Origin: an uncultured Chromatiaceae bacterium
Lineage (GTDB): Bacteria; Pseudomonadota; Gammaproteobacteria; JAADHS01
Assembly: GCA_964421045.1 (NCBI GenBank)
Contig: CAYQVF010000009.1
Coordinates: 4,380-68,379, forward strand
Direction: 5' to 3'
Length of the DNA: 64,000 nucleotides
Shown: piece after piece, positions 5,627-22,829 of the stretch
How positions within the stretch are numbered: the stretch's first letter is position 1
Layout of the letters: each line of letters begins with the position of its first letter
Position numbers and translations under genes: made by a program
The notes under the pieces: model-generated
The model's database searches: none
Seen by the model: only the letters and a program-made list of their open reading frames with translations
Told to the model about the DNA's origin: nothing

Positions 5627-6727
5627 GTGATGGAAAGTACAACGGTAACAACACTGCCAGGCACAGGCAGCACAGCCGATCTACCCAAAGAACACGATAG
5701 CAATACAATACTGGCCAATAACGAATCCAGCATTGCCTCACTCGTATCTGAAATTCAAATGCAGGATTCAGAAAGCATTCTGCATTTCGGTTCAAAAACT
5801 CAGTATAAACTCACGGAAATCTCTGAGAACATGCTGGATGGTGTAAAAAATAAAGATCTTGGCTCTGCTGGGGGTGCATTAAATGAAGTTGTTTCCGTTC
5901 TCCGAGGATTTGATATCGATTCAATCAAAAAACCCTCTTTTTTTGAAAAAATATTGGGTAAAGCCAATCCTGTCGCAAAAATTTTACAGCGCTATGAATC
6001 GGTAAGAGGGCAAATTGATGCCATTACGAATCGTTTGGAAGGTCACAAAACGCAACTTTTAACCGATATTATTTCCCTGGATAAATTATACGAAGCCAAT
6101 CTGAATTATTTCCATGACCTTGAAACTTATATCGCTGCTGGTGAAATAAAACTAAAAAACCTGGATGAAAAAGAACTCCCTGAACTGGCAAAAAAAACAG
6201 AGCAATCAGACCAGGTTTTAGATGCACAAACACTCAGTGATCTACGCGCATCAAGAGATGAGCTTGAAAGGCGTGTACATGATTTACGACTCACTCGTCA
6301 GGTTGCTTTACAAGCCTTGCCAAGTATTCGTTTGGTGCAAGAGAATGACAAAGGACTCGTTAATAAAATTAACTCGACCATCGTAAATACGGTGCCATTG
6401 TGGCAAAACCAACTGGCTCAGGCACTGACTATTTCCCGTGCATCACAAGCAGGTAAAACATTACAAGCAGCCACAGACCTAACCAATGAATTATTGGAAT
6501 CCAATGCAAAAAATTTGAATACTTCAAATGCACAGATACGCAAGCAACTGGAACGTGGAACATTTGATATTGAATCCATTAAAAAGGCCAATACACTACT
6601 GATCACCACCATTGAAGAAAGCATTCAAATCTCTGAAGCCGGAAAAAAAGCAAGAGCTGAGGCAGTAACTGAGTTAATAGATGCTGAAAACAAACTAAAA
6701 ACCGCTTTAACAAAAGCTAAAGCTTAG
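5627..6727 (+). CDS. TelA/KlaA-like toxic-anion-resistance family protein (tentative)
   Basis: 366 aa, hydrophilic and coiled-coil rich, with a low-complexity N-terminus. The length and the YIAAGEIKLKNL-type segment are reminiscent of the TelA family. It is divergent from the metal-efflux cluster. Confidence 0.4.
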   Translation: MMESTTVTTLPGTGSTADLPKEHDSNTILANNESSIASLVSEIQMQDSESILHFGSKTQYKLTEISENMLDGVKNKDLGSAGGALNEVVSVLRGFDIDSIKKPSFFEKILGKANPVAKILQRYESVRGQIDAITNRLEGHKTQLLTDIISLDKLYEANLNYFHDLETYIAAGEIKLKNLDEKELPELAKKTEQSDQVLDAQTLSDLRASRDELERRVHDLRLTRQVALQALPSIRLVQENDKGLVNKINSTIVNTVPLWQNQLAQALTISRASQAGKTLQAATDLTNELLESNAKNLNTSNAQIRKQLERGTFDIESIKKANTLLITTIEESIQISEAGKKARAEAVTELIDAENKLKTALTKAKA

Positions 6728-6822
6728 ATGTACGGATTACGCCGTGCAGTCTGGGCAAAAAAAGTCGGTTGTCGTGTAGCCAAATCGGTTTTTAACAGGA
6801 AGCTCAAAAAAGCAATACTGAG

Positions 6823-6900
6823 GTGTAGTAGCTCAAATCTAAACTAACAGACACCCTAAAAAAACGGGTAACTGTCAGATTAGGTCTGAGCTACTACATC
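6823..6900. terminator. Imperfect ~20-bp inverted repeat (GTGTAGTAGCTCAAATCTAA ... TTAGGTCTGAGCTACTACATC) between convergent genes
   Basis: Seen directly in the sequence. The arms are 6823-6842 and 6880-6900 with a ~37-nt spacer and 2-3 mismatches. It sits between the 3' ends of the TelA-like (+) gene and the LVIVD (-) gene. No U-run follows, so it may not be an intrinsic terminator. Confidence 0.3.
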
Positions 6901-7111
6901 TAATTGTTTGATTAATTCTTCAACTGTAATTTTCGACATTATATATCCTTTATTTGATGCAACGTAACAACTGCGATTAAAAACATAGTCGAGTAGAGCC
7001 AGGCGTGCGCAATCTTAGGTGAAGAGTTTTTCCGACCTGTACTTTTTGCGGTTGTGCAGCGGGTTCCTAGTTTCACCCTCATCCACTTTTCCTATGCCCT
7101 CTCTAATATAC

Positions 7112-10105
7112 TTAGTCCCTGTCGCCACACAAACTTTGGTTATCACAATGTATGCGGGCGTTAGAAAAAGACATTTTCATTTTAATGGCATTGGGGTATG
7201 GGTAGGCTATTCCCGCAGCGTTTATATTAAGATCATAACTGCCCAGAGGCATAAACCGGGGGAAAATAGCTTTAAACAGATTTTTATTCACCTGATCAGG
7301 AATGAAGTTCACTTCGGGTAATGGCTTCAATGCAGTAATCATCGTATTTCCGGCGAGATAAACTGCGTCAACTCCAGGCCAAAACCGGGTCAGTTGACCG
7401 ATTAATGGGTACTCAACCTTCAGCTTTAATTCAGGAGCAGAATATTCTAACAACGAGCCTGACGCAGCGAGAGCATATAGTTCCCCCTCAGCCAGGCTCA
7501 AATCGGTAATGGACTCATTTAACTTGATTTTATTCAGCAATGTTAAACCTGTACTCGTTAAGCGATATAATCTTAAATACTTATCGTTTTGATAGGCTAC
7601 GAGTTGATTTGAGCGAACACTAATCAAGTTTGCGGCAACAGGAAGGTCGTATTTTTTTACTAGTTTCAAATCGGAGTCAAACACCATCAATCCCGCTTCA
7701 GCCTGCTGTAAGGCAACGTATAACTTATCTGAATACCCAGCAATATCGTTAACTATGCCACCAGACCACAGGACTTGACTCATCTTTTTCCCGCTCACAT
7801 CAACACGAAGAAGCGCTTGCTCAGCTGTGATGATAAAAATGGCGTACTCACTAAGTATTATTTTTTTTGGATTAACACGCAATTCAATATGTCGCAATGC
7901 ATGAGCCTGGAAAGGATTGCTGATGTCTATTTCAGTCAATAAACCCGCATCAGAAATGACATAAGCTCGTGTCTCATTAATGGCAATCCCGACGCTGTTT
8001 CCAGGTAAATCAACACCGGTCACCCAGGTTGGGTTGAGCGGGTTTTTATTATCAAATACTTGCACCCCCCCTTCTCCATTTGCACTATAAAGATAATGAC
8101 CTTGCTCAACGACTTGCTCAACCACGCCACGCTCATGATAGCGATCTTTCAATGTCAATTTTCGGGGATTGCTAACATCAATCGTAACGACCCCACCCCA
8201 CCAGTCCATAACAAAAAGATGACCCTTATTATAAGCCAAGCCCCAGGCGGCACCGCTGGTATCATAACTGCCCAACAAACGCAGTGTGTTCACATCACTG
8301 ATATCAACAACATGAACACCGGCCAACCAATCTGCGATATAGGCATAATTCTCATGCAGATCAATGCCCCGTGCATTACCTGGCGTAGCCAGCATCGCCA
8401 AAAGTTCAGGCCTAACCGCATCTGCCACGTCAATAGCCATCAGCCCCTGGTCAAAAAAAGTAACGTAGGCAATATTATCTCTAACCCGTACATCTTCCGC
8501 TCGACCTTCAGGGTTAAACTGCCCCAGCAAACCGGGATGGCTGGGTTCGGTCACATCATAGATCAACAATCCCGCTGCATCATCCGCGATATAAGCTTTA
8601 TGATCCACGACATCGATCCCCCATGACATCCCTGGTGTATCAATATGAGCGATGATACTGGGTTGCAGTGGATTGCTGATATCGAGTATTTGGAAACCGC
8701 CCTGATGACTGGCCAGATAAAGATGATCTCCCACAATTTTGGGAATATAAGCCAAACCCGGTGTTAATATATGCGCTGCGTATTTTGGCTGCTGCACGTT
8801 GTGTACATCCACAATATGCAAGCCGTGATCATCATCGGCAATATAGGCATAACCGGCTTTGACAACCACGCCTTTTGGCGAACCCGGCGTATGATAACTG
8901 GAGATCAGTTTAATCCGTGCGGGATCACTGATGTCATAAATATGCATGCCTGAAAACCAATCCGCAACATAAGCAATATCATCTTCAATAAAAAGACGGC
9001 GCTCACCACCAAAGTTCACCCCTTGACCTGAGTCTAAACGTTGATTAGTCAACTGCGGAGGCGTAGCAGAAAAGTCTATTTTTTTTACACCACCTTGCTG
9101 AGCAATAATAATATCGTTATTATGCATGGCCAGCTCATAAATTGAACCTTTTGCATCATATACCGAGATGGTGGTTGGCATCATAGGTAAAGCAACATCA
9201 ACAACAATCACCTCCCCTTCCAGGTTGTAAAGCACCAGACGATCTTGAGCGAGATCTAATTGTAACTGGCGCACCGCTCCCAAGCGGCTATGGCTACCTA
9301 ACCAGCTCAGTTGTCCATCGGCCTGCAAACCAAGAATAAGGACACCACCCGCCCCTAAGGCAACATAGACATAAGTTCCGCCCATTTTAATATCGTAAAC
9401 AGGTAAAGAAACATGATAAGACCCCTGGTATTTTGCACCCTGCGCACTGAGCAAGTAGTACCTGATTTCTCCAGACTCAGTCACAACAAGGAGTGTATTG
9501 TCATTCACTGTAATCATATCAGCAGACTGTTCCGTCACGATGACATGGGGCTTGATCTGTTCTGTTACTGTCGTATCAAAGCGAACCACTTCTGCATGGT
9601 CCGTGGTGACATATAATTTTCCACCCTCAATAATCGCATGCTGAATCCTGGCACGACCTTGATACTGTGCCCGTAAAGCTAACTGCCCACCATCGAGTAC
9701 ATCATAGGCGGTAATATCGCCATTCGTCGTGATGACAAATAAGACATCATGACTCATCCCGACCCATTGGTATTTAGCTTGTGCTAATGTCGCTCTCTTT
9801 TTTCCTGAGTCTAAATCTCGAACCTCGAGTTCACCCTGCTCTGTAATAACAAAAACATAGTCATCAGAGACAGTCAAAAACTGCGCCTGATAAGGCAATG
9901 CAAATTTACCTACCAGCCTAGCACCACCCGGATGAAGCGTGATATTGTCCACGTTTTTTTTAACTTCTACAGCCACTGTAGTCTGTTTACCATATGAAAT
10001 AACAGCCGGATCCAGTTGCTTCAGCAACCCCGAATCAGCATTCAGGCTGCTCGCCCCTAAAAATAAACAAAGACTCCCTGAAATGATTTTAAGTTTATCT
10101 ATCAT
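7112..10105 (-). CDS. Large secreted LVIVD-repeat (beta-propeller) protein
   Basis: 997 aa with a signal peptide ([23 protein letters not shown]). It has at least 8 tandem repeats of the LVIVD type (YAYIADDDHGLHIVDVHN, AYIADDAAGLLIYDVTEP, AYIADWLAGVHVVDISDVN, LFVMDWWGGVVTIDVSNP, AYVADWFSGMHIYDISDP, LYLASHQGGFQILDISNP ...). Its start overlaps the stop of the upstream histidine kinase gene. Confidence 0.7.
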   Translation of the reverse strand: MIDKLKIISGSLCLFLGASSLNADSGLLKQLDPAVISYGKQTTVAVEVKKNVDNITLHPGGARLVGKFALPYQAQFLTVSDDYVFVITEQGELEVRDLDSGKKRATLAQAKYQWVGMSHDVLFVITTNGDITAYDVLDGGQLALRAQYQGRARIQHAIIEGGKLYVTTDHAEVVRFDTTVTEQIKPHVIVTEQSADMITVNDNTLLVVTESGEIRYYLLSAQGAKYQGSYHVSLPVYDIKMGGTYVYVALGAGGVLILGLQADGQLSWLGSHSRLGAVRQLQLDLAQDRLVLYNLEGEVIVVDVALPMMPTTISVYDAKGSIYELAMHNNDIIIAQQGGVKKIDFSATPPQLTNQRLDSGQGVNFGGERRLFIEDDIAYVADWFSGMHIYDISDPARIKLISSYHTPGSPKGVVVKAGYAYIADDDHGLHIVDVHNVQQPKYAAHILTPGLAYIPKIVGDHLYLASHQGGFQILDISNPLQPSIIAHIDTPGMSWGIDVVDHKAYIADDAAGLLIYDVTEPSHPGLLGQFNPEGRAEDVRVRDNIAYVTFFDQGLMAIDVADAVRPELLAMLATPGNARGIDLHENYAYIADWLAGVHVVDISDVNTLRLLGSYDTSGAAWGLAYNKGHLFVMDWWGGVVTIDVSNPRKLTLKDRYHERGVVEQVVEQGHYLYSANGEGGVQVFDNKNPLNPTWVTGVDLPGNSVGIAINETRAYVISDAGLLTEIDISNPFQAHALRHIELRVNPKKIILSEYAIFIITAEQALLRVDVSGKKMSQVLWSGGIVNDIAGYSDKLYVALQQAEAGLMVFDSDLKLVKKYDLPVAANLISVRSNQLVAYQNDKYLRLYRLTSTGLTLLNKIKLNESITDLSLAEGELYALAASGSLLEYSAPELKLKVEYPLIGQLTRFWPGVDAVYLAGNTMITALKPLPEVNFIPDQVNKNLFKAIFPRFMPLGSYDLNINAAGIAYPYPNAIKMKMSFSNARIHCDNQSLCGDRD

Positions 10106-12513
10106 TATATTTTTTCGGTAAGCAATAACTCTGCAGCCCCAGTCAAGCCATCCATGACGGTATAAAATTCATTATTGAAAGAGTCGAGTAACTCTGCGTA
10201 GGGAAGCCCTTCGAATAATGTTGCTTCCAGTGCTTCTATTTTTTTTGATAATTGAGTGGCACCCAAGCTAGCGGCAACACCACGCAGTGTATGCAGGAGA
10301 TGACGCACCTGTTTATCCTCTCCCAGGTTTAATGCCTTTGCCAACACGTTGGCATCATCACCATGATCCCTCACAAACTCTCTCAGCAGTTTACAAAACA
10401 ACTTGCGGTTTCCTCCGACTCGCTGCAAGCTTTCATTGATATCTATACCCGGCAGAGCGTTAAGAAAACGATCAGCTACATCAATATCTTGTTCATCATT
10501 ATTTTCCCAAGAATGCAGTTCATTGGACGATAAAGCCATCCATTTAGTCAACGTGGCATATAAAATATCAGGATCAATCGGCTTGGTAATATGATCGTCC
10601 ATTCCAGCCGCTAAAAATTTTTCTCTGTCACCGGACATGGCATGAGCGGTCATAGCAATAATAGGCAGTGTTTTACAATACACATTTTTACGGATGAGAC
10701 GGGTCGCCTGATACCCATCCATCTCCGGCATCTGTATATCCATCAGCACTAAATCAAATGTTTTTGCACGCACAGCCTGAACAGCGAACACGCCATTATT
10801 GGCAATTGTTACCCGTACACCCGTCACTTCAAGGAGCTCTTGAGCCACTTGTTGATTAATGCTGCTGTCCTCCACGACCAGTACGCGAACGCCTCTCAAG
10901 TCAGGCACTCCCCCCTTTTTCAATAATAAATCTTGTTTTTCGACGCCTTTATGAAGAGAGTGAGAACATTCAAATTCAGCATTAAAAAAGAAAGTGCTAC
11001 CCCGACCAGGCTGGCTTTTAACACCCAATGCCCCATTCATCATAATCACCAGTTGTTTGCTAATCGCCAGGCCCAAACCCGTGCCGCCATAATTTCTTGT
11101 CGTCGAACCATCGGCTTGAATAAAAGGTGCAAACAAAGCATCGGCCTTGTCAGGCTCAATGCCTATCCCGGTATCTTTTACCGAAAAATGTAACACGACC
11201 CGTTCTTCTTCTGTCTCCTGTATTTTTACAGATACATGAATATAGCCTTGTTCAGTAAACTTCAGCGCATTGCCAACAAGATTAATTAATACTTGTCCCA
11301 AGCGCAGCGAGTCTCCCACCAGGACCGCAGGAATTTTTTTGTCAATGTCATAATTCATGACTATCCCTTTTTCTGCCGCGTCTACCGACACCAAATTAGA
11401 AAGATGATCGAATACACCTTGCAAGGAAAAATCAGTTTTTTCTATTTCCAGGTGACCCGCTTCTATTTTTGAAAAATCAAGAATGTCATTAATAATACCC
11501 AGCAATGTCTTGGAGGAAGTCTGAATTTTATTTAAATAATCACTCTGCTTCGGCGTCATTTCAGTTTTAGTCGCGAGATAAGCCAAACCCATAATGGCAT
11601 TCATTGGGGTACGAATTTCATGGCTCATATTGGCGAGAAACTCACTTTTGTAACGGCTTGCCTGCTCGGCCTGTTCTTTGGCCTCCACCAGTTCCAATGT
11701 CCTTTCAGAAACCGTGTCTTCCAGTTTATCATGGGCTTGTTGAAGCGCGGTTTCAGCACTTTTTCTCGCTTCTTGCTGATGCTGGATGCGCACCAACATA
11801 TGATTAAATGCTTCGTACAAACGACCAATTTCATCTTGCGCAGGGTGGTGCACCCGCCGACTGTAATCCATATTTTGAGAGATATCATCAGCAACGCCAG
11901 CCAGCGTTAAAATCGGTTTTGAAATCACGCTCTGCAGGGCATTGGCTAACAAATAGGCCAGGGCGATTAAGAACAAAGCCGTAAACAATAGAAAAAGTCC
12001 ATATTGCCGTCGTTTATCATCGAGCTCTTTAGTGGAGAGTAATAAATAAATGCTGCCGTAGTCACGCTCCTGATAGCGAATGGGTTTAATAACATGTAAT
12101 TTGTTATCACGAAATTCGGTAAGATCATTTGTTTCAGAATGAATCATCCGGTTTGCGGCTTGTTTAACTAGTAAATCCACTGAGCTTTGGGATTTTGGAA
12201 CCGCGACATTATGCAAACGAGTGAATAATTTCCCTTTTTTGTCATACAAAAAAGCCTCTTCCACTGCCGGTGTACGCAGCAATCCAGAAAGCGTTTCCCG
12301 CGCGGCTTCTTCATCGCCAAAAAAAAGATCGGAAGCGGCATACCCCCCCACAGTATGGGCTGTAATCACCGCATTATCCAACATATTTTGCTTAAAAGCC
12401 TTCACATCCGTAAACATGACAAAACCCAAGCCCAAACTGACGACGGGAATAACCACGGCAAGAATGACAATAATGATTCTGTGGCGCAAAGACAGTTGGG
12501 CCAAAGACTTCAT
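10105..12513 (-). CDS. Hybrid sensor histidine kinase/response regulator (TM-periplasmic-TM, HAMP, HisKA, HATPase, REC, Hpt; BarA/GacS-type architecture)
   Basis: H-box [13 protein letters not shown], an HATPase region ([22 protein letters not shown]), a REC domain ([10 protein letters not shown]...[15 protein letters not shown]...TAHAMSGD) and a C-terminal Hpt ([12 protein letters not shown]). The N-terminus has two TM segments flanking a periplasmic domain of about 150 aa. Confidence 0.85.
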
Positions 12514-13046
12514 TTTTTTTCGCGACCTGTTGAAGACATCATGATCGCCAATTTAAGTAATCTTGAACTGATTTTTAAACCCACCGTTTCCGCTGCCTGC
12601 TGATTGATTTCAAAATGGAGTTTATTATTTTTACGAATAAAATTAATCATCACACCTTGATGAGCAAAGCCAGGGGTATCACTAATGGTTAATACCGGAC
12701 GATTTTGTAATGAGACAAGAATGCCCTCTAGAGCCTTGTGTTGTGTTTTTTCGATAAACAACATATCGCAATCGACAGCAGATTCAGAGCGACTCATTTG
12801 GGTAAATAATGTCGGTCTACCGTTAATGGCCAAAGATTCCAGTTTTTTCAGTTCACCTTTAAATAAATTTTTTCCAATAATGCATAATTGAAAATGCCCT
12901 TTTGAACCGCCCGGCCATTCAACAAAACGAGTGAATTTTTCCATAAACGCCGCTTTTAGTTCATACTCACTCACGCCCCCCCATGCAGGCAATGAAAAAC
13001 TTAATAGCAGCAATATCGTCAGTACACGCTTCAACAGCATTTCCAT
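12510..13046 (-). CDS. YfiR-like periplasmic protein (DUF4154)
   Basis: 178 aa with a signal peptide. The C-terminal [42 protein letters not shown] is characteristic of DUF4154/YfiR. It overlaps the kinase start by 4 nt and is 1 nt from the TBDR stop. Confidence 0.65.
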
Positions 13047-13047
13047 A

Positions 13048-15198
13048 CTAAAATTTATAATGCAATGTGAAACTCAGCAATCTTCCTGGCTGAGGTGCTT
13101 CGAGAAAAGTGACTTGAGTTGTACCTTCTGAAACATTGACATATTTTTTATCAAATAGATTGAAAATATCTGCTTTAATAGTAAAACGATCCGTGAGTTT
13201 GACCTGACTGTGTAAATCTATCCGGTAATAAGAAGGAATACGCAAACGTTTGGTGCTGTCATTGGGGGTTTTTTGTTTGTGTTGAGTCGAACCCACCCAA
13301 AATAATTTCGGTGTTAGCAAATATTTATTGTGATAGTCCAGGGTCATGCCAGCAATAAACTTGTATTTAGCAGTTAAAGGTAATTCAGAATCCCCCTCCC
13401 CCTCTTTTAACTGACCTTCAATAAAGCTGACATTCGCCCAGCTTTTCAACGTTGTTTTGTTCGCTAAAATAGATTCATTTGCAACACTCACGTCAATGCC
13501 ATAGCTTGTTGAATCTGCCATATTTTTCGATTTTTGTGTCCGCAATATCTGAGCACCCGGAATCGCTTGATCCGGTGTCTCATCCGCAGCGGTCTGTATG
13601 ATGTCAGAGACTGAAATATAATAAGAAGCCACTTTTAAATGTGTATGCTCATCAAACCAATGCTCATAATTCAATTCAAAAGTTTTTGCTTTTTCAGGCT
13701 TGAGATCCGGATTAGGTACCTGGAAGAAATCGCCTATCCACGCCCCATTACTATTTTTTTCGCCGCTAAAACCACCAAAGTGGCGAAACATTTGATCCGA
13801 TGACGGCGCGACAAAAGCATGGCCATACAATATTTTAAATACATTGCTTTCATCGTATTTATAAATGGCGCTGATACGCGGATTACGAGTTTTACCATAC
13901 AATGAATTATTATCATAACGTAGCCCGATGACCAACCGCCATTGCGAGTTAATCTCCCAATTATCTTGTAGATAAACGCCATAATTACGATAGCTTCTGG
14001 CAAAAAAAGCGATGGGGATATCGGTATTTGGATAGGTCAAAGTTTGTTCATCAGGGCTTTTTGACGTGTCGTAGCGTGCAGGTAGATCAGCGCCTACCGG
14101 TATGACGTCAAAATAATCAAAAACCAGACCTCCTGACAAATGATGATTTTGATTAAACTTGAATTCAAAATCCTGATTCAATGACACACGGTCACTGTTT
14201 CCATATTTGTAACCCGGTTTAAAGTCTGTGAATCTATTGTTGTAATAAGTATTATTTTTCAACTCATAGTTCATTGCATTAAGCAAAGTGTTTACTTTAA
14301 ACCCGGAAAACAATTCTGTTTGATAGCGCACATAAAAATTGCTCAGCCGTACTCTTTCTTGTGCATCGACATCAAACGCACTGCTTGACGGTAGCGAAGA
14401 AAAATCGTGACTATACGAGTAAGCGCTATGATTAAATCCAACTTGCCAATTTTGACCGAGACTGATGTTGCCCAGCAAACTGTAGTTTCTTGAATTAGCA
14501 AAGCGATAGCCTTTAGACGGATCGTCGTATAGCTCAGGGAAATCTTTATCAAATTCAAAATTTTGTGATTTATAAGCCTGCACACCCAGGTTAAGGTGTA
14601 CATTATCCTTTATATTATGACTGAGATGAGCGTATCCATATCGATAGTCATCTTGACCGGCGGTGACTGAAATATCAGCGACATTACGCTCGTCACTGTC
14701 CATAGTAATAATATTAATCACACCCATGAAAGCATCAGCACCATAAGAAACGGAAGCCGGCCCCATAAGTACTTCTATTTGTTTGGCGTAGTAAATAGGG
14801 AAATTTTCAAAAATAGCTAGTCTTTCACTTGCCGGTGCACTGATACGTACACCATCCTGCAAAAAAAGAAACTTGTTATTACCCACGACACCTCTTGTCG
14901 TAATCAGATTATAAGAAGCTTGCGCCGAAAAATTTTGCATTTGAACACCGGGCAAACTTTGCAGAATATCCAGCAAGCTGGTATAGCCACGCTCTCTAAT
15001 CTGCTTTTGAGTAAAAACATGAATATCTGCTGGTGTATCCCGTAGCTTTTCTTCGTATTTAGATGTCGTACTGATTTCAATATTCATCAGCTCTTGTAAC
15101 GACAGTTGACGAAGACCTTCAGAAATATCGGCTGACAGTGGGCAAGGAATAATACAGATGGCAACTACAATTAGTTTTCGTCTGAAATAGCCATCCAT
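13048..15198 (-). CDS. TonB-dependent outer-membrane receptor
   Basis: 716 aa with an N-terminal plug region (DTPADIHVF...GVQMQ, MGPASVSYGADAFMGVINIIT). The protein is beta-rich throughout and has a C-terminal aromatic (…LHYKF) typical of TBDR barrels. Confidence 0.8.
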   Translation of the reverse strand: MDGYFRRKLIVVAICIIPCPLSADISEGLRQLSLQELMNIEISTTSKYEEKLRDTPADIHVFTQKQIRERGYTSLLDILQSLPGVQMQNFSAQASYNLITTRGVVGNNKFLFLQDGVRISAPASERLAIFENFPIYYAKQIEVLMGPASVSYGADAFMGVINIITMDSDERNVADISVTAGQDDYRYGYAHLSHNIKDNVHLNLGVQAYKSQNFEFDKDFPELYDDPSKGYRFANSRNYSLLGNISLGQNWQVGFNHSAYSYSHDFSSLPSSSAFDVDAQERVRLSNFYVRYQTELFSGFKVNTLLNAMNYELKNNTYYNNRFTDFKPGYKYGNSDRVSLNQDFEFKFNQNHHLSGGLVFDYFDVIPVGADLPARYDTSKSPDEQTLTYPNTDIPIAFFARSYRNYGVYLQDNWEINSQWRLVIGLRYDNNSLYGKTRNPRISAIYKYDESNVFKILYGHAFVAPSSDQMFRHFGGFSGEKNSNGAWIGDFFQVPNPDLKPEKAKTFELNYEHWFDEHTHLKVASYYISVSDIIQTAADETPDQAIPGAQILRTQKSKNMADSTSYGIDVSVANESILANKTTLKSWANVSFIEGQLKEGEGDSELPLTAKYKFIAGMTLDYHNKYLLTPKLFWVGSTQHKQKTPNDSTKRLRIPSYYRIDLHSQVKLTDRFTIKADIFNLFDKKYVNVSEGTTQVTFLEAPQPGRLLSFTLHYKF

Positions 15199-15304
15199 AA
15201 TCTAGCATCCAGTCTTAAGTATTGGCGAGCGTCCTTTGTACTCTATGTCTCCATCTTTCGTCAATGAAAACATTATGTTTTTTACGATGTGATGTGCTAA
15301 GAAT

Positions 15305-15454
15305 CTGTAAATAAATAACTTGGCATTCTACGCTCGCTAGCACTTCGTCTCCACAGCTCACGCCCCTTAGCGACTTCCATAAAAGCAAGGTGCTTATACT
15401 CGTTACCAGAGACGGAATGATGGACAAGTAAAATATTAAGTTATTTATTTACAG
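15305..15454. repeat. Perfect 17-bp inverted repeat (CTGTAAATAAATAACTT / AAGTTATTTATTTACAG) with a 116-bp spacer in an AT-rich divergent intergenic region
   Basis: Seen directly: the arms are 15305-15321 and 15438-15454. It sits in the 600-bp region between the TBDR operon start and the gshA start. A second 8-bp inverted repeat (GTGCATAG-N21-CTATGCAC) occurs near 15545-15581. Confidence 0.5.
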
Positions 15455-15805
15455 GCTCTAACCCAAAGTGGCGTCAAAAAACCTCACTTAGTGCCACAAA
15501 AAATGCAAATCTATATAACCCTAAAAAACGCAGTTGATCCACGGTGCATAGCTCAATCTTGCAGTTAAGGAACTATGCACATTCCTAATTCAACATTAAT
15601 ATAATGACTATTTTTAAATAGAGACTAGAATACTCAGGCTTACTCATCGTACAATATACCCATGACGATTGAGATTTAGGTATAATTACACGTCCTCTTC
15701 ATTACCATCGGGGCGTTAAAATTTCTCGCAATAGTAAACTACATCTAAACCTCAAACGCCACGGGTATAGACCCTCAACATTATATATTTAGGAATTCAA
15801 AACTA

Positions 15806-17092
15806 ATGAGTATTGAACATCTTCATGCTGTACCCCATTTAACAACGGTACTCAATGGACCATTACTCAAACTTGAACGCCATTTCCTGGATCGTCAAGC
15901 ACACATTGAATCCTGGTTACGCAGTCAATGGCTACAAACACCCGCCCCTTTTTATGCTTCCGTTGATTTACGCAATGCCGGTTTTAAGCTTGCTCCAGTC
16001 GATACCAATCTCTTCCCTGCCGGGTTCAACAATTTAAACCCGGCTTTTTACCCGCTTTGCTTTCATGCAGTGCAATCGGCAATTGAGCGAATCTGTCCCG
16101 ATGCGCAACGAATTTTGCTTATCCCTGAAAATCATACTCGCAATACTTTTTATATAGAGAGCTTGAGCAGACTCACTGAAATCCTGAGTAAAGCGGGGCT
16201 AGAAGTTCGTATTGGCACACTGGCTGAATCTCCTTCTGAACTTAAACTCCCCTCCGGTCATACCCTAAAAATAGAGCCGCTCACCCGAACAGGAAATAAA
16301 GTCGGGGTTAAGGATTTCACGCCCTGCGCCGTGTTACTCAACAATGATCTTTCTTCGGGACGACCAGAGATACTTGAAAATCTCGATCAAATCGTAACCC
16401 CACCGCTCGACCTGGGCTGGGCACAACGACTGAAATCCCAACATTTTAGTTGTTATCAAGAGGTGGCTTCGGAATTTGCACATATTGCCGATATCGATCC
16501 TTGGTTCATCAACCCATTATTTCGCCATTGCGGTGAAATTGATTTTATGAAACGTAATGGCGGCGAATGCTTGCAAAGTAACGTTGGGAAATTACTTTAT
16601 GATATCCAAGGTAAATATGACGAATATGGCGTAGATAAAAAACCTTTTGTCATCATCAAAGCAGATTCTGGAACCTATGGTATGAGTGTGATGACGGTAC
16701 ATGATTCTGATGAAATCATGGCGCTTAATCGCAAGCAACGCACTCGCATGGCCGCGAGCAAAGGGGGGCAAGCTGTCTCAAAGGTTATCATGCAAGAAGG
16801 AGTTTATACCTTTGAAACCTGGGGCGATGATCAAGCCGTAGCCGAGCCGGTTGTCTATATGATGGATCATTTTGTGGTGGGTGGCTTTTATCGTGTCCAT
16901 ACCGGTAGAGACATTAATGAAAATCTAAACGCGCCGGGTATGCAGTTTGAGCCGCTGGCCTTTGCGGAATCCTGTAGTAACCCGGATAACAAAAAAGCAC
17001 CTGATGCCAACCCCAATCGCTTCTATGCCTACGGTGTTATCGCACGACTGGCCTTGCTTGCTGCCGCCAGAGAAATAAAACAAGCCGGATGA
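15806..17092 (+). CDS. gshA: Glutamate--cysteine ligase (short proteobacterial type), operonic with gshB
   Basis: 428 aa. Its stop overlaps the gshB start (ATGA at 17089). The family assignment comes from that operonic context with glutathione synthetase and general resemblance to the ~430-aa proteobacterial GshA class. I did not verify the motif by search. Confidence 0.55.
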   Translation: MSIEHLHAVPHLTTVLNGPLLKLERHFLDRQAHIESWLRSQWLQTPAPFYASVDLRNAGFKLAPVDTNLFPAGFNNLNPAFYPLCFHAVQSAIERICPDAQRILLIPENHTRNTFYIESLSRLTEILSKAGLEVRIGTLAESPSELKLPSGHTLKIEPLTRTGNKVGVKDFTPCAVLLNNDLSSGRPEILENLDQIVTPPLDLGWAQRLKSQHFSCYQEVASEFAHIADIDPWFINPLFRHCGEIDFMKRNGGECLQSNVGKLLYDIQGKYDEYGVDKKPFVIIKADSGTYGMSVMTVHDSDEIMALNRKQRTRMAASKGGQAVSKVIMQEGVYTFETWGDDQAVAEPVVYMMDHFVVGGFYRVHTGRDINENLNAPGMQFEPLAFAESCSNPDNKKAPDANPNRFYAYGVIARLALLAAAREIKQAG

Positions 17093-18036
17093 AACCTAAA
17101 CTCGGCGTCGTTATGGATTCTATTGAGTCCATTAAACCTTATAAAGACTCCACTTTTGCAATGTTGCTGGAAGCTCAAAAACGCAATTGGCAAATTTATT
17201 ACATGGAGCAAAATGATTTATTTATGCGGGATGGCCGTGCTTGTTCCACCATAAAACGCTTAGCGGTTTATGACGACAAATCAAACTGGTTTGAATACCA
17301 AAGCGCCGCACAAGCGTCCCCCCTCTCGTCTCTCGATGTGATCTTAATGCGTAAAGATCCACCATTTGATATGGAGTACATCTATTCTACTTATCTTCTT
17401 GAAAAAGCCGAAGCCGAAGGGGTATTGGTGGTTAATAAACCTCAGAGCCTGCGTGATGCTAATGAAAAGTTATACACTTCATGGTTTCCGCAATGCTGTC
17501 CGCCCAGCCTGATCAGCCGGAACAATGCCCAGCACCGTGCTTTTCTCCAAGAATACAAGGATATTATACTCAAGCCCCTGGATGGTATGGGCGGAGCATC
17601 GATCTTTAGACTCCATCAAGACGATTATAATATTAGTGTGGTGCTTGAAACATTAACGGCACACGAAACACGCTACATCATGGCGCAACGCTATATCCCT
17701 GAAATCAGCCAAGGTGACAAACGCATTCTTGTCATCAATGGAGAACCTGTGCCTTATGCACTGGCTCGCATTCCTGCTAAAGGAGAAACACGAGGAAACC
17801 TGGCGGCAGGCGGTCGCGGTGAAAGCCGGCCTCTTTCAGAGCGAGATCACTGGATTTGTGCGCAAGTCAAAGAAACATTGATTCGCAAAGGACTGCTTTT
17901 TGTGGGCCTGGATGTGATTGGTGATTATCTCACTGAAATTAATGTCACCAGCCCAACCTGTATTCGCGAACTGGACAAAAACCACTCGCTGAACATTGCC
18001 GGTTTGCTGATGGACACCATTGAAAGTCAGTTATAA
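17089..18036 (+). CDS. gshB: Glutathione synthetase
   Basis: 315 aa. It is near-collinear with E. coli GshB (MIKLGIVMDPI.. vs MKPKLGVVMDSI; DVILMRKDPPFD; ILKPLDGMGGASIFR; RGNLAAGGRGE; TEINVTSPTCIRE). Confidence 0.92.
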   Translation: MKPKLGVVMDSIESIKPYKDSTFAMLLEAQKRNWQIYYMEQNDLFMRDGRACSTIKRLAVYDDKSNWFEYQSAAQASPLSSLDVILMRKDPPFDMEYIYSTYLLEKAEAEGVLVVNKPQSLRDANEKLYTSWFPQCCPPSLISRNNAQHRAFLQEYKDIILKPLDGMGGASIFRLHQDDYNISVVLETLTAHETRYIMAQRYIPEISQGDKRILVINGEPVPYALARIPAKGETRGNLAAGGRGESRPLSERDHWICAQVKETLIRKGLLFVGLDVIGDYLTEINVTSPTCIRELDKNHSLNIAGLLMDTIESQL

Positions 18037-18088: not shown

Positions 18089-19213
18089 TTAAGAGTCGAT
18101 GATGGCTTGCTCTATCTGTTGCCTTAAATCAGCAATCCAGATTTTTATTAAACGATTAGAAACAACACAAAAAATGGATAGGATCATCATACGATAGACC
18201 CAGGGTCGAGCCACTTTTATACGCTGAGAAGCATCCAGATAACAGCCAAAGCGTGCTAGCTTAGCCAACGTCGCTAACCCTATCAGCAAGGGCCACAAAG
18301 CCGCAAGCCGTAAACGAAAACAGTACCAGGGTATGGCTAAAACATATTGTTCAGCTTCACCATAATAAGCCAAAGCCTTTCTTAACCACTTATGAATAAT
18401 CGGTTTTACCGCGTTACTTTTTTCTGCATCAAGAAGTTGTTGTGGTGTCAATGCCGCAGCACATAACTCATCAAGTGGTAAATAACAACGTCCTTCACTC
18501 AAGTCTTCAGGTAGGTCTCGCAGAATATTGGTCAACTGTAATGCCTTGCCGTAACGGACACCTTGTTCACTCATGGCGGCAACATCCCAATGGCTTAGTG
18601 CCTTGTCATATCGACTTATAATTTCTGTCCAAAATGCGCCCACGCAACCCGCTACGCGATAAATATAATCATCCAATTCAGAGTCATTTGCCAAAGCGAT
18701 GGGTTGAGCTTTAGGAGCGTGGTGAAAACGCTGCATATCCAGTTCCATGCCACTGATTAACACATTGACGACGTTAGCAATGGCGGCTTTATCTTGAGCT
18801 CCCACAGAATAAAATTCAGACAACACAAATGGAATACTTTTCAACAAGCAACGCTCAGCAGGATCCTTGATACCCTTAATAAGCGACGGGGTAACAATAT
18901 CAGCCTGCCTCGACGGATCTTCCAGTACGCCGCGTAAAGTGATCAATACCGCCAGGCGCTGCGCAGCAGAGACTTCAGTAGAATCAGCGATCGTATCTGC
19001 GGCTCTGGCCAGCAAGTAGGCTATGGCGATAGGCAGCCTCGCACCGGCGGGCAACACTCTGAGCGTTAAATAAAAACTACGAGAAACCGATTTGAGTTGC
19101 GCTAAAAAAGCGCGTTCGGTTTTCACTAAGGGTCGTCTACCATACTTTTGTGATCTCTCAGGATGAACAACTAATGCAAATTTCTCCTGCCCAGGCGGGT
19201 GGTTTTTGTGCAT
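18089..19213 (-). CDS. Squalene/phytoene synthase family protein (squalene synthase-like) with a hydrophobic C-terminal tail
   Basis: Has the trans-isoprenyl diphosphate synthase head-to-head motifs (SRSFYLTLRVLP; YCYRVAGCVGAFWTE; GKALQLTNILRDLPEDLSEGRCYLP). The C-terminal ~60 aa are hydrophobic. The annotated start (an alternative start codon) overlaps the selO 3' end by ~56 nt, so the true start may lie further downstream. Confidence 0.6.
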   Translation of the reverse strand: MHKNHPPGQEKFALVVHPERSQKYGRRPLVKTERAFLAQLKSVSRSFYLTLRVLPAGARLPIAIAYLLARAADTIADSTEVSAAQRLAVLITLRGVLEDPSRQADIVTPSLIKGIKDPAERCLLKSIPFVLSEFYSVGAQDKAAIANVVNVLISGMELDMQRFHHAPKAQPIALANDSELDDYIYRVAGCVGAFWTEIISRYDKALSHWDVAAMSEQGVRYGKALQLTNILRDLPEDLSEGRCYLPLDELCAAALTPQQLLDAEKSNAVKPIIHKWLRKALAYYGEAEQYVLAIPWYCFRLRLAALWPLLIGLATLAKLARFGCYLDASQRIKVARPWVYRMMILSIFCVVSNRLIKIWIADLRQQIEQAIIDS

Positions 19214-20636
19214 AATGAGCGTACGATGGTTGCTCGTCGAAAGGTCGACGTAACAAGGTTAACAATCGCTCTACCTCACTAAAATCATTCTCATTTTCAG
19301 CTAATTTTATTGCTGATTCTGCCATATGATTCCGCAAAATATACTTTGCATTCACTTTTTTCATACGAACATGCCTGTCTGTGTCACGACTCTTCTCTTG
19401 AAATAAACGTACGCGATACCGGGCTAACCAATCTGACATACCCCGTGAATTTGAGAATTGTTCTGCTAAAGCATTTTGCGACGACTCTTGCTCAGCGTGC
19501 AACGCACTCAGTTGACGAAAAAACAAGGTATAGTCAACCTGCCCTTCCATTAATGCCAACAAAGATTCCATTAATTCAGAATCCCCTTTTTCTTGCTCAA
19601 ACAAGCCTAGTTTGTCTCGCGAAATATTGAGATACGCTGTTTGGTATAATGCTTGATAGTGAGAAAGTTCTGCCTTGGCAAATTCTGCTGCACGCTCAGG
19701 GTCATCATCAAACAAGGGCAACATGGCCTGTGCCAAACAACTGAGATTAAACAAACCTATTTGTGGTTGTTGTGAAAAAGCATAACGCCCAGAAGTATCA
19801 GAGTGATTGCAGATATAATTTGCTTCATAGGTATCGAGGAAAGCGAAGGGGCCATAATCCAAAGTTAAGCCAATGATCGACATATTATCCGTGTTCAACA
19901 CTCCGTGAGCAAAGCCAACGCTTTGCCACTGCGCAATCAATTTAGCCGTTTTTTTTAGCACCACGGCAAATAGCTTTTGATAAGCGTCAGCCTGCCCTTC
20001 TAAGTCGGGGTAGTGCTCACGAATAACGTAGTCTGCCAAAAGCTGTAAATAATCAAATTTTTGCGCATAATAAAAATACTCCAAACTACCAAAGCGTACA
20101 TGACTCTGTGCAACACGCAACATCATCGCTCCCGGCTCAAATGTTTCACGATAAACCATTTGTTTGCTGGAAATTAAAGCCAAAGCACGGGTCGTAGGAA
20201 TGCCCAAACCATGCATTGCTTCACTACAAAGGTATTCCCTAATACAGGAACGCAAAACAGCACGACCATCACCTTGCCGCGAGTAACGGGTGATGCCACT
20301 GCCCTTGATTTGAAGATCCCACAGTTGTTGCTGCTTATCCCTGATTTGCCCTAATAAAACCGCACGACCATCGCCCAAGCGCGGCACATAGGTACCAAAT
20401 TGATGTCCGGCATAGCACATGGCTAAGGGCTCACTGCCAGACCAGGCATCAATACCCGTGACATAGCGGATAAATTGTTGCGCATTAAACTCAGCCTGTG
20501 TGAAACTCAGCAATGACTGGACATCAGAATTCAAACTGGCAAACGCAGTCCCCTCCAGAGGCTCAGGTGAAACCTTGTGATAAAATTCTGCGGGTAAACG
20601 AGCGTATTGATTATCAAATTTTAGTTGGTTAAACAT
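19158..20636 (-). CDS. selO: Protein adenylyltransferase SelO (YdiU/UPF0061)
   Basis: 492 aa and collinear with E. coli YdiU (YAGHQFG; LGDGRAVL; KGSGITRYSRQGDGRAVLRSCIREYLCSEAMHGLGIPTTRALAL; GFAHGVLNTDNMSIIGLTLDYGPFAFLD; C-terminal ...SCSS). Confidence 0.9.
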   Translation of the reverse strand: MFNQLKFDNQYARLPAEFYHKVSPEPLEGTAFASLNSDVQSLLSFTQAEFNAQQFIRYVTGIDAWSGSEPLAMCYAGHQFGTYVPRLGDGRAVLLGQIRDKQQQLWDLQIKGSGITRYSRQGDGRAVLRSCIREYLCSEAMHGLGIPTTRALALISSKQMVYRETFEPGAMMLRVAQSHVRFGSLEYFYYAQKFDYLQLLADYVIREHYPDLEGQADAYQKLFAVVLKKTAKLIAQWQSVGFAHGVLNTDNMSIIGLTLDYGPFAFLDTYEANYICNHSDTSGRYAFSQQPQIGLFNLSCLAQAMLPLFDDDPERAAEFAKAELSHYQALYQTAYLNISRDKLGLFEQEKGDSELMESLLALMEGQVDYTLFFRQLSALHAEQESSQNALAEQFSNSRGMSDWLARYRVRLFQEKSRDTDRHVRMKKVNAKYILRNHMAESAIKLAENENDFSEVERLLTLLRRPFDEQPSYAHYAQKPPAWAGEICISCSS

Positions 20637-20796: not shown

Positions 20797-22200
20797 CTAC
20801 CCTACAGAAGAAGATTCTACAGGACTATTTTTAGGCACCTTGAAAGCACCAGGATCAACCTCATGACGATGTAATAATTTATAGAACTCGGTACGATTTC
20901 GTTTGGCTAATCTTGCAGCCTGACTCACATTGCCCGCTGTAATTTTCAAAATTTTCAAAATATAATCTTTTTCAAAGCGAGCTTTTGCATCTTTCAAAGA
21001 AGGTAAGTCCATCGGCACCTCTCGTAGCGCACCTTTAACTAAGCTTGCAGGAATCACCTGCGTTGTACATAAAGTAAACGCTTGCTCCACGATGTTACGT
21101 AATTGCCGTACATTTCCCGGCAAGGGCGCGAGCAATAATAATTCAAGAGCAGCAGGTGAAAAATTTTTCAAAGCTTTGTCGTATTTATAAGACAACTCAC
21201 TTAAGAATTTATTCACGATTAAGGTAATATCTTCCCGTCGCTCTGATAATGGAGGAATTTCCAACGACACGACGTTTAATCGATAATACAAATCTTCTCG
21301 AAATTGCCCTAAACGTATTTCTTCATTAATATCCCGGTGTGTCGCCGAAATCAGGCGAATATCAACGGCGATGTCTTGAGTAGAGCCTAATACACGAATG
21401 ACCCGCTCCTGAATCACTCTTAATAGCTTCGCTTGTAAAGAAACAGGCATATCTCCAATTTCATCAAGAAAAAGTGTGCCTCCATTTGCTTCTTGTATTA
21501 ATCCCTTGTGGTTTCTTGTCGCTCCAGTAAAAGCACCTTTGTTATAACCAAATAACTCCGACTCTAAAAGTTGCTCTGGAATAGCAGCACAATTAATCGT
21601 GACAAAGGCCTTGTCTTTTCTGGGGCTCGCACGGTGTATTGCCTGAGCAAAAAGTTCTTTACCTGTACCGCTATCGCCTCTAATAAAAACACTGGCATCG
21701 CTTTGCGCAACTAACCAGGCCTGCTGGATTAAATCTTCCATTAACGAGCTTCGTGTAATGATCTCTTTACGCCATTCATCGTCAACATTAGTCGATGATG
21801 AGACTTCGGGCATGCTACTGCCCATCCCCACCAACCCCACTGCTTTTTCTACCTGGGATAAAAGATCTTTACTGTCAAAAGGTTTAGTTAAAAAGCCAAA
21901 AACACCTTTGTGCGTCGCATTGATCGCATCAGGTATAGAACCATGCGCCGTTAGAATAATAACGGGCAATGAAGGGTTGTCTCTTTGAATCACTTCTAAT
22001 AGCTCTATGCCATTCATTCCGCCCATTTTCAAGTCAGTAATAACTAGGTGAGGGCGTGAAATCGTTAATTGGTCTATTGCCTTTTCCGCGCTATCTACTG
22101 CAGTGACGTCATAATTTGCCGTTTTAAGCCGTAATGAAAGTAATTGCAAAAGATCTTTGTCATCATCGACAATTAATATTGTTGCTCGATTCGTTATCAT
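20797..22200 (-). CDS. Sigma54-dependent two-component response regulator (NtrC family; GlrR/QseF-like)
   Basis: 467 aa with an N-terminal REC domain (ILIVDDD...VITDLKMGGMNG) and a central sigma54-interaction AAA+ domain (GDSGTGKELFAQAIH; GAFTGA; ESELFGY). The C-terminus carries a Fis-type HTH. Confidence 0.85.
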   Translation of the reverse strand: MITNRATILIVDDDKDLLQLLSLRLKTANYDVTAVDSAEKAIDQLTISRPHLVITDLKMGGMNGIELLEVIQRDNPSLPVIILTAHGSIPDAINATHKGVFGFLTKPFDSKDLLSQVEKAVGLVGMGSSMPEVSSSTNVDDEWRKEIITRSSLMEDLIQQAWLVAQSDASVFIRGDSGTGKELFAQAIHRASPRKDKAFVTINCAAIPEQLLESELFGYNKGAFTGATRNHKGLIQEANGGTLFLDEIGDMPVSLQAKLLRVIQERVIRVLGSTQDIAVDIRLISATHRDINEEIRLGQFREDLYYRLNVVSLEIPPLSERREDITLIVNKFLSELSYKYDKALKNFSPAALELLLLAPLPGNVRQLRNIVEQAFTLCTTQVIPASLVKGALREVPMDLPSLKDAKARFEKDYILKILKITAGNVSQAARLAKRNRTEFYKLLHRHEVDPGAFKVPKNSPVESSSVG

Positions 22201-22829
22201 GGTGTAACGGTTCCTTCATTCATATCTCGTTGAATTATACTCGTTTCTATCGACTTAAGCAGTGTCAACTGGCGCTTGATTTTTTCTCTTTCCGCTTCGC
22301 TTTCAGACAGTTTATCTTTTAATTTCTGGTTTTTCTTTTCCAGTTCACTGTACTTGGAATCCAGAGAATACATCTCTTGGCTCAGTCGCATATTTTCTTG
22401 TAACCAACGACGATACTGTTTTCCCAAGAAAGCCAGAAAGTGCTCTGATTGGCTACGCTCCGACGAGTCATCTTTTAAATTTCCGTCTCTTATTAGAGAC
22501 AGAACTTGCTCTGCTGACTTTGTACTTTTATCGCTATAAGCCTGTAATAAAATCAACTTATATCGATTTAACATGCTCGGCTGATTCGTAAAATCAGCCT
22601 TTACTTCAACCAATAACTGCGCTAACTGTTTATCGCTAAGCCCTTCATATATCTTGGTAAATTGACTTATTTCTTGTAGCTCATAATAGGCAGAATATTG
22701 GGTCTGAAACAAAACCTGGCGTCCTGTGTTGCCTACTCCCGATGTTCGTTCAAACGCAATACAACCCGTTAACAAGAACATCAAACCAACCAGAACCAGC
22801 CTTGCTAAAGTATATCTAGCATAATTCAT
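22197..22829 (-). CDS. Coiled-coil lipoprotein (QseG/YfhG-like position between kinase and regulator)
   Basis: 210 aa. It has a lipobox (LTGC) after a signal peptide and a C-terminal coiled-coil (KYSELEKKNQKLKDKLSESEAEREKIKRQL). It overlaps both neighbouring genes by 4 nt. Confidence 0.5.
   Translation of the reverse strand: MNYARYTLARLVLVGLMFLLTGCIAFERTSGVGNTGRQVLFQTQYSAYYELQEISQFTKIYEGLSDKQLAQLLVEVKADFTNQPSMLNRYKLILLQAYSDKSTKSAEQVLSLIRDGNLKDDSSERSQSEHFLAFLGKQYRRWLQENMRLSQEMYSLDSKYSELEKKNQKLKDKLSESEAEREKIKRQLTLLKSIETSIIQRDMNEGTVTP

Follow-up and report, generated by a model that had tools for sequence, protein, structure and literature searches.

What does it mean when a gene of unrelated type lies tightly packed behind a signalling cassette: does it belong to the cassette, or has it merely come to rest there? 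The question is raised by a four-gene cluster on the minus strand of a 64,000-nucleotide stretch of DNA from an uncultured Chromatiaceae bacterium, which we refer to throughout as the window. In the order in which they are read, the four genes encode a TonB-dependent receptor (TBDR; positions 13048..15198, 716 amino acids (aa)), a YfiR-like (DUF4154) protein (12510..13046, longest open reading frame (ORF) 178 aa), a hybrid histidine kinase (10105..12513, 802 aa) and an LVIVD-repeat protein (7112..10105, 997 aa). Our analysis indicates that the first three genes probably constitute one YfiR-family signalling unit, of which the LVIVD gene is probably not a general component.

Reading the junctions directly from the sequence, we found that the TBDR and YfiR-like genes are separated by a 1-nt gap (TAG-T-ATG), the YfiR-like and kinase genes overlap by 4 nt (ATGA), and the kinase and LVIVD genes overlap by 1 nt (TAATG), so that the LVIVD start overlaps the kinase stop codon. 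The four ORFs and their tight junctions had been proposed in an earlier note on this DNA, and its coordinates proved exact. The public annotation of the same contig (GCA_006243245.1, VAPM010379724.1) has the YfiR-like gene begin two codons later, at 13040, which makes the protein 176 aa long and widens the gap after the TBDR gene to 7 nt. The LVIVD gene is co-transcribed with the kinase gene, and the two are probably translationally coupled as well. No response-regulator gene is present in the four-gene operon.

The domain assignments made in the earlier note for all four proteins were confirmed with Pfam, and the matches are not due to chance because they combine strong profile scores with full-length ORFs. 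The receptor matched Plug (residues 52-160, 74 bits, E-value 1.6e-20) and the TonB_dep_Rec barrel (residues 230-681, 143 bits, 2.6e-41). It has a signal peptide, a 22-strand-type barrel and a C-terminal end reading ...HYKF. An N-terminal motif common to cassette TBDRs, L-S-x-E-E-L-M-N-I-E-V-T-S-x-S-K, was seen as well and was not used as evidence. The YfiR-like protein matched PF13689 (DUF4154, 'YfiR/HmsC-like') with 146.1 bits against a cutoff of 24.9 (1e-42), and the family profile matched the YfiR crystal structures 4xjy, 4yn7 and 4zhu with E-values from 6.5e-12 to 1e-11. Its hydrophobic N-terminal segment is predicted to be an export signal, with a putative signal peptide ending in ...LPAWG.

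In the kinase, six domains scored above their Pfam cutoffs: CHASE8 (1.2e-10), HAMP (1.8e-09), HisKA, HATPase_c, Response_reg and Hpt. Two hydrophobic segments, TM1 (residues ~12-34) and TM2 (~172-193), bracket the periplasmic CHASE8 domain (41-157), and HAMP, HisKA, HATPase, REC and Hpt follow in that order. The phospho-sites of the relay are all present, namely His298 in HisKA, Asp592 in REC and His741 in Hpt. The description of this protein as a BarA-like kinase that ends in an Hpt domain and is encoded in an operon lacking a regulator therefore stands, on the Pfam matches and the gene content.

How often the first three genes occur together was determined by aligning YfiR-like homologues and scanning the alignment against metagenome contigs, counting only loci with enough flanking sequence. 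Of 42 related loci, 38 had a TBDR gene directly ahead of the YfiR-like gene, and in 46 of 51 the next gene downstream encoded a sensor homologous to the N-terminal 250 residues of the window kinase. These counts bear out the earlier suggestion of a recurring trio of TBDR, DUF4154 protein and sensor, and the TBDR is a conserved outer-membrane partner in these cassettes. Outputs could be read at 29 loci with enough flank, where we found a kinase core (22 loci), GGDEF(-EAL) (4 loci) or no sensor match (3 loci). Because the outputs vary in this way, the trio behaves as a shared input module. CHASE8 was the sensor domain in all 8 cassette or sister-cassette sensors whose Pfam domains were read.

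Individual loci add to this picture. In the sister cassettes of the window's own branch (YfiR-like identity 51-58%), the gene order is TBDR, YfiR-like protein, CHASE8-HAMP-PAS-kinase, single REC and REC-kinase. Other cassettes carry a kinase of the window's CHASE8...REC-Hpt type; at one such locus, L133, it is the last cassette gene and is followed by murB on the opposite strand, from which we conclude that no fourth gene is needed to complete the trio. The lack of a regulator in the operon is thus a recurrent state among cassettes. Some cassettes (L085, L120 and L157) contain either two TBDR-YfiR pairs, as in L085, or 2-3 tandem TBDR genes with one YfiR-like gene, before a single sensor, an arrangement that suggests that several receptors feed one sensor.

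The trio has also been catalogued. NCBIfam holds three consecutive curated models for it (NF053590, NF053591 and NF053592), whose order and three protein types are matched by those of the window; the family names carry no tested function. The receptor had sub-threshold NCBIfam matches only, including one to NF053590 (TOL_0244 family) of 108.3 bits compared to a cutoff of 645. For the YfiR-like protein, the best NCBIfam match was NF053591 (TOL_0243 family), with 115.2 bits compared to a cutoff of 125, and the N-terminus of the kinase matched NF053592 ('sensor histidine kinase, YfiR-like protein-associated') with 143.9 bits compared to 194. YfiR-like proteins of other cassettes exceed the NF053591 cutoff (150 bits for L133 and 163 bits for L165), whereas L168, which carries the closest sister of the window protein, scored 115.5 bits. 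Since L133 and L165 pass and L168 scores like the window, we place the window, together with its sisters, in a slightly divergent branch of the catalogued family.

A description of related modules was already available as well. An in silico survey of 2012 (PMC3375315) reported divergent YfiB-less YfiR/YfiN[PAS-HAMP] pairs whose outputs are GGDEF-EAL, Hpt or kinase, and the window resembles them in joining a modular YfiR and sensor core to varied outputs, including hybrid kinases. Taken together with the NCBIfam models, this means that the earlier note overstated the case in calling the system undescribed. The 2012 survey differs from our findings in that it contains no mention of a TBDR as a conserved upstream partner; indeed, Malone et al. 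2012 does not mention TonB (PMC3375315). When full-text literature was searched for DUF4154 or 'YfiR-like' together with TonB, no experimental work linking a TBDR to YfiR-like proteins was found, and papers naming both YfiR and TonB-dependent dealt with unrelated topics as far as their titles and abstracts reveal. We conclude that the trio is of a known and catalogued kind and that the window contains a new, slightly divergent member of it with a lineage-specific extra gene.

The kinase by itself invites a different explanation, namely that it is the cell's BarA/GacS orthologue and that the adjoining genes are incidental. Its best NCBIfam match is indeed the BarA equivalog NF008318 (E-value 6e-146), a match that spans the N-terminal sensor through the catalytic core, and it has the identical TM-periplasmic-TM-HAMP-HisKA-HATPase-REC-Hpt architecture, with the regulator encoded elsewhere in both cases. 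However, the score of 487.9 bits lies far under the equivalog cutoff of 890, and on this score BarA orthology was ruled out. In addition, the sensor groups with YfiR-associated CHASE8 sensors, the kinase is paired with a YfiR-like protein, whose gene overlaps its own, and with a TBDR, and the kinases of sister cassettes differ in output. We therefore regard this explanation as very improbable.

If genes 1-3 form a unit, is the LVIVD gene part of it? No LVIVD gene was found at any of 83 cassette loci, 24 of which had at least 3.5 kb of sequence downstream of the YfiR-like gene. Approaching the question from the other side, we surveyed LVIVD loci using one genome per species, which left 80 of 142 loci. 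The TBDR, YfiR-like and kinase genes were upstream of LVIVD at one of these, L001, which belongs to the same lineage, comes from a hydrothermal metagenome-assembled genome (MAG), is 89% identical and shares the 1-nt kinase/LVIVD overlap; the cassette was absent from the other 79. It was also absent from LVIVD orthologues of 68-69% identity. For one of them, the preceding gene is unrelated and encodes 137 aa; for the other, the 273 bp ahead of LVIVD contain no Hpt-coding sequence.

The commonest context of the LVIVD gene is instead a housekeeping neighbourhood, in which LVIVD follows thiD-thiE-hemL-aldo/keto reductase. None of its usual neighbours (hemL, thiD, thiE, aldo/keto reductase, HDOD, DUF484-GGDEF, ABC_sub_bind) is present in the window. 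Among the LVIVD-family (PF08309) loci surveyed, it is only in the window lineage that the gene follows a YfiR-type cassette. The earlier note had taken the LVIVD gene as a component of the cassette, while allowing that it might be fortuitously adjacent. The surveys favor the latter: the four-gene order is not conserved, and the adjacency appears to be fortuitous.

Against this stands the idea that the four genes are a true functional unit in this lineage, with the LVIVD protein serving as a periplasmic or surface co-sensor or effector, for example by binding a ligand or a partner and working with the TBDR or the YfiR-like protein. The TAATG overlap argues for such a unit: genes joined in this way must be co-transcribed, and the 89% relative has retained the overlap. 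So do the genes that lie downstream of LVIVD elsewhere. On the same strand, signalling genes were found 0-2 kb downstream at 18 of 66 loci, at 2-4 kb in 19/58 and at 4-6 kb in 10/49, compared to 3/46 at 6-8 kb and 1/42 at 8-10 kb, and upstream of LVIVD there were at most 2/59 in any 2-kb bin. About one third of the sampled species have cyclic di-GMP (c-di-GMP) or two-component genes within 0-6 kb downstream of LVIVD on the same strand.

Two main arrangements account for these genes. In the first, tRNA_edit-HDOD is followed by DUF484/GAF-GGDEF, with some loci having the GGDEF gene only. The second, seen in Chromatiaceae and Tenderia, consists of ABC_sub_bind, a HAMP kinase and REC-REC-PAS-GGDEF-EAL. 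With the cassette upstream in the window, the LVIVD family thus adjoins signalling genes in three arrangements. However, since the downstream genes fall into only two main arrangements, the enrichment counts are not phylogenetically independent. Moreover, the gaps between LVIVD and the downstream signalling genes are mostly ~55-310 bp, which suggests separate transcription units. We consider these neighbourhoods a weak lead that the function of this propeller family may be linked to lifestyle signalling.

The LVIVD protein itself was examined by profile and structure comparisons. It matched PF08309 with 186.8 bits (3e-56) and 7 repeats. The earlier note had called it a giant secreted protein. 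At 997 aa, 'giant' is an overstatement; 'secreted' holds to the extent that the protein has a probable N-terminal Sec signal peptide, with which the N-terminal helix of the structural model is consistent. An AlphaFold model built from a 20-sequence alignment (predicted local distance difference test (pLDDT) 88, predicted template-modelling (pTM) score 0.85) was confident and all-beta, with ~20-21 blades of four strands each, which would make about three propellers, and a beta sandwich at the C-terminus. The best matches in a fold search were DDB1, which has three propellers, and the ectodomain of LRP2, with template-modelling (TM) scores of 0.2-0.29. Because these scores are low, the model says only that the protein is a multi-propeller scaffold, and the fold search, which returned generic multi-propeller matches only, gave no functional lead. 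A search of the LVIVD profile against PDB sequences likewise yielded weak propeller matches only (designed 'Cake' proteins, BamB and LST8). Conservation is highest in the central LVIVD propeller, around residues 354-700. On the opposite strand, inside the LVIVD gene, there is an ORF of 188 aa with a TTG start (8060..8626, plus strand); we treated it as spurious, given that it lies opposite a strongly supported gene.

Homologues of ~1000 aa with 32-42% identity are found in uncultured Gammaproteobacteria (Chromatiaceae, Tenderia, Ectothiorhodospiraceae and others), Gallionella and Nitrosomonadales. A preprint on Tenderiales offers the speculation that an LVIVD protein (orthogroup ALP54212.1) has a role in attachment, which could be taken to favor a co-sensor or effector role here. 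That protein is exported and has LVIVD repeats, and members of the window family occur in Tenderia MAGs (L034 and L045); the two were likened by description and not by sequence. When we set this proposal, the overlap and the neighbourhood counts against the absence of LVIVD from cassette loci, the orthologues that lack the cassette and the fold search, a functional unit of four genes in this lineage seems unlikely. A broader version holds that the LVIVD family acts with envelope signalling modules as a so far unrecognised partner, in the periplasm or at the surface, and that it has here been wired in as the fourth component of a TBDR-YfiR-like-kinase pathway, a TonB-dependent route distinct from FecA/FecR/sigma; this version is decidedly improbable. 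On our preferred reading, the LVIVD protein would be an exported binding or scaffold protein with a separate evolutionary history, whose gene would have landed behind the kinase gene in this lineage.

How might genes 1-3 work together as a YfiR-family unit? In the YfiBNR system (TpbB) of Pseudomonas aeruginosa and Escherichia coli, YfiR represses YfiN by binding the motif AAVVF in its periplasmic domain via a C-terminal hydrophobic patch (PMC3375315), and YfiB relieves the repression by sequestering YfiR (PMC3375315, PMC4655355, PMC4887326). The window resembles this system in that a yfiR-type gene lies immediately upstream of, and overlaps, a gene for a CHASE8-HAMP membrane sensor. The hydrophobic patch is conserved as well. 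Phe162 and Leu183 of YfiR, which lie within it, are reported to be important for YfiN binding (PMC3375315). In our family alignment, the C-terminal patch of the window protein, HFEIN..., is conserved, with F145 nearly invariant and I147, N148, L163 and L164 invariant; the family residues align to the YfiR segments ...ITFEAN... and ...VLKLA, so that the counterparts of P. aeruginosa Phe162 and Leu183 are F145 and L163/L164. The first YfiR cysteine pair (C71-C110 in P. aeruginosa) is also kept, as C55 and C93.

The sensor side shows a partial correspondence. CHASE8 belongs to the Cache-like sensor clan (PMC8846402), and the periplasmic part of E. coli DgcN/YfiN can be aligned to it. In an alignment of 46 cassette sensors with E. 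coli DgcN from NC_000913, AAVVF aligned to a conserved AAxxF in most cassette sensors and to S61-D-L-F-F65 in the window kinase. At this site the window and sister sensors read (A/I/V)-S-D-L-(F/V)-F; the central Phe is retained, and other residues stand in place of the two Ala.

The window departs from YfiBNR in its input and its output. A gene for a YfiB-like (Pal/OmpA-like) lipoprotein was found neither in the window operon nor in the three sister cassettes with genes listed; in its stead there is the TBDR gene, located upstream rather than downstream. The output is a HisKA-HATPase-REC-Hpt phosphorelay and not GGDEF.

By analogy with YfiBNR, the exported YfiR-like protein would bind the CHASE8 domain of the kinase, with its C-terminal hydrophobic patch placed onto S61-D-L-F-F65, the counterpart of AAVVF, and this binding would hold the kinase in one signalling state. 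The TBDR would replace YfiB as the outer-membrane input. It might do so in either of two ways: the ligand-loaded TBDR could capture the YfiR-like protein, as YfiB does, or the TBDR could import a ligand that the YfiR-like protein then binds. Once released, the kinase would autophosphorylate at His298, and the phosphate would pass to Asp592, then to His741 and from there to a response regulator encoded elsewhere.

Several observations weigh against the reading of genes 1-3 as a YfiR-family unit to which LVIVD is extraneous. All three cassette proteins fall under the NCBIfam cutoffs. No cysteine is present in the region of the YfiR-like protein that aligns with the second YfiR cysteine pair (P. 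aeruginosa C145-C152); cysteine pairs matter in YfiR, and in P. aeruginosa C145-C152 is essential for folding (PMC4655355). In the subclade of the window, the two alanines of the AAVVF motif are replaced by Ser-Asp (SDLFF in the window). Because of this replacement and the missing cysteine pair, the details of how a YfiR-like protein binds the kinase may differ from those in YfiBNR, and the protein-protein contacts of the proposed mechanism are themselves assumed from YfiBNR homology. As for the LVIVD gene, retention of the TAATG overlap in L001 leaves room for a lineage-specific role, and, in view of the signalling genes enriched just downstream of LVIVD elsewhere, its adjacency to a signalling cassette in the window may not be pure accident.

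A receptor gene joined to a signalling gene could also be explained by the FecA-FecR-FecI type of system, in which an outer-membrane TonB-dependent receptor is likewise genetically tied to an inner-membrane signalling protein. The window receptor, however, has no STN domain: Plug, which begins at residue 52, and the barrel were the only Pfam matches at E <= 0.01, and the mature N-terminus extends only ~28 residues ahead of the plug. On this ground it was ruled out as a FecA-type transducer. The window system also differs in lacking an anti-sigma factor and an extracytoplasmic function (ECF) sigma factor, and any link from receptor to histidine kinase would run through the soluble YfiR-like protein.

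It is also conceivable that the operon serves nutrient uptake and carries its own regulator. In that case the TBDR would import a substrate, the YfiR-like protein, as a small ligand binder in the periplasm, would report the substrate to the kinase with no contact to the receptor, and mainly uptake genes would be regulated. In its fold, YfiR is similar to the N-terminal domain of ATP-binding cassette (ABC) substrate-binding proteins, and it binds vitamin B6 and L-Trp in a pocket that also accepts YfiB Phe57 (PMC4655355, PMC4887326). The tandem TBDR paralogues of some cassettes would fit ligand-specific importers, and a substrate-binding-protein and kinase arrangement with a nearby TBDR adjoins LVIVD genes in Chromatiaceae and Tenderia loci. 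Nevertheless, the affinities reported for small molecules on YfiR are weak, in the tens of millimolar (PMC4887326), and none of the cassettes inspected for gene content contained a gene for an inner-membrane transporter. The GGDEF-EAL outputs are regulators of lifestyle, not of uptake, and upstream of the window operon there is neither a convincing Fur box nor a riboswitch. We view an uptake operon as possible, if somewhat unlikely, and prefer to regard genes 1-3 as a signalling unit.

The surroundings of the operon were also inspected. The cluster is flanked on one side by telA (5627..6727, plus strand) and on the other by the divergent gshA-gshB pair (15806..18036, plus strand), and tig-clpP-clpX-lon-ppiD occurs in the same chromosomal setting. 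The 607-bp intergenic region between gshA and the TBDR gene (15199..15805) is the presumed site of the operon promoter. Sigma-70 promoter-like sites were at chance level (22 found compared to 23.8 expected), and no Rfam families were detected across 6600-15900. A candidate Fur box upstream of the TBDR gene, with a best match of 13/19, was rejected since the window has 25 sites that match equally well or better.

About 287 bp of this intergenic region (about 15299-15585) is missing from L001, the closest relative. The stretch contains an inverted repeat with 32-nt arms at 15300-15331 and 15428-15459 and a perfect 17-bp core, CTGTAAATAAATAACTT; the stretch folds as a long hairpin of -56 kcal/mol (z -3.6). 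Neither the rest of the window nor unrelated loci contain the core. The stretch could be a MITE-like (miniature inverted-repeat transposable element) insertion or a leader structure. Farther along the same region, at ~15654-15735, an 83-nt alignment was 81% identical to positions 36-117 of L002, which lie just upstream of LVIVD in an unrelated Chromatiaceae MAG; this shared segment is possibly a small mobile element or conserved non-coding DNA.

At the other end of the operon, ~200 nt downstream of the LVIVD stop, a hairpin with 43-nt arms and a 9-nt loop (6814..6908, minus strand) is followed by the T-run GCTTTTTTG, making it a possible operon terminator. A simple terminator scan neither listed this hairpin nor singled out the end of the operon. 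Just upstream of the hairpin (~6881-6940, minus strand), there is a 19-codon ORF that comes after a Shine-Dalgarno-like sequence (MSKITVEELIKQLDVVAQT); the 3' end of this ORF supplies one of the hairpin's arms.

Two further groups of genes on the minus strand of the window may be mentioned. At 18089-20636, genes for a SelO protein adenylyltransferase and a squalene/phytoene synthase-family protein would overlap by ~56 nt if the longest ORFs are real. At 20797-24286, a separate two-component operon encodes a histidine kinase (486 aa), a 210-aa protein with no Pfam match and a sigma-54-dependent response regulator (467 aa), with 4-nt overlaps.

The trio of TBDR, YfiR-like protein and CHASE8 sensor occurs widely, both among environmental Proteobacteria and in other phyla. 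Since its host is uncultured, the window is not the best test system for the proposed mechanism; it does present a clean example of the cassette with a full His-Asp-His relay. If the TBDR does replace YfiB in these cassettes, they would represent a second trans-envelope signalling route for TonB-dependent receptors besides the FecA type, one that feeds kinases and c-di-GMP enzymes.

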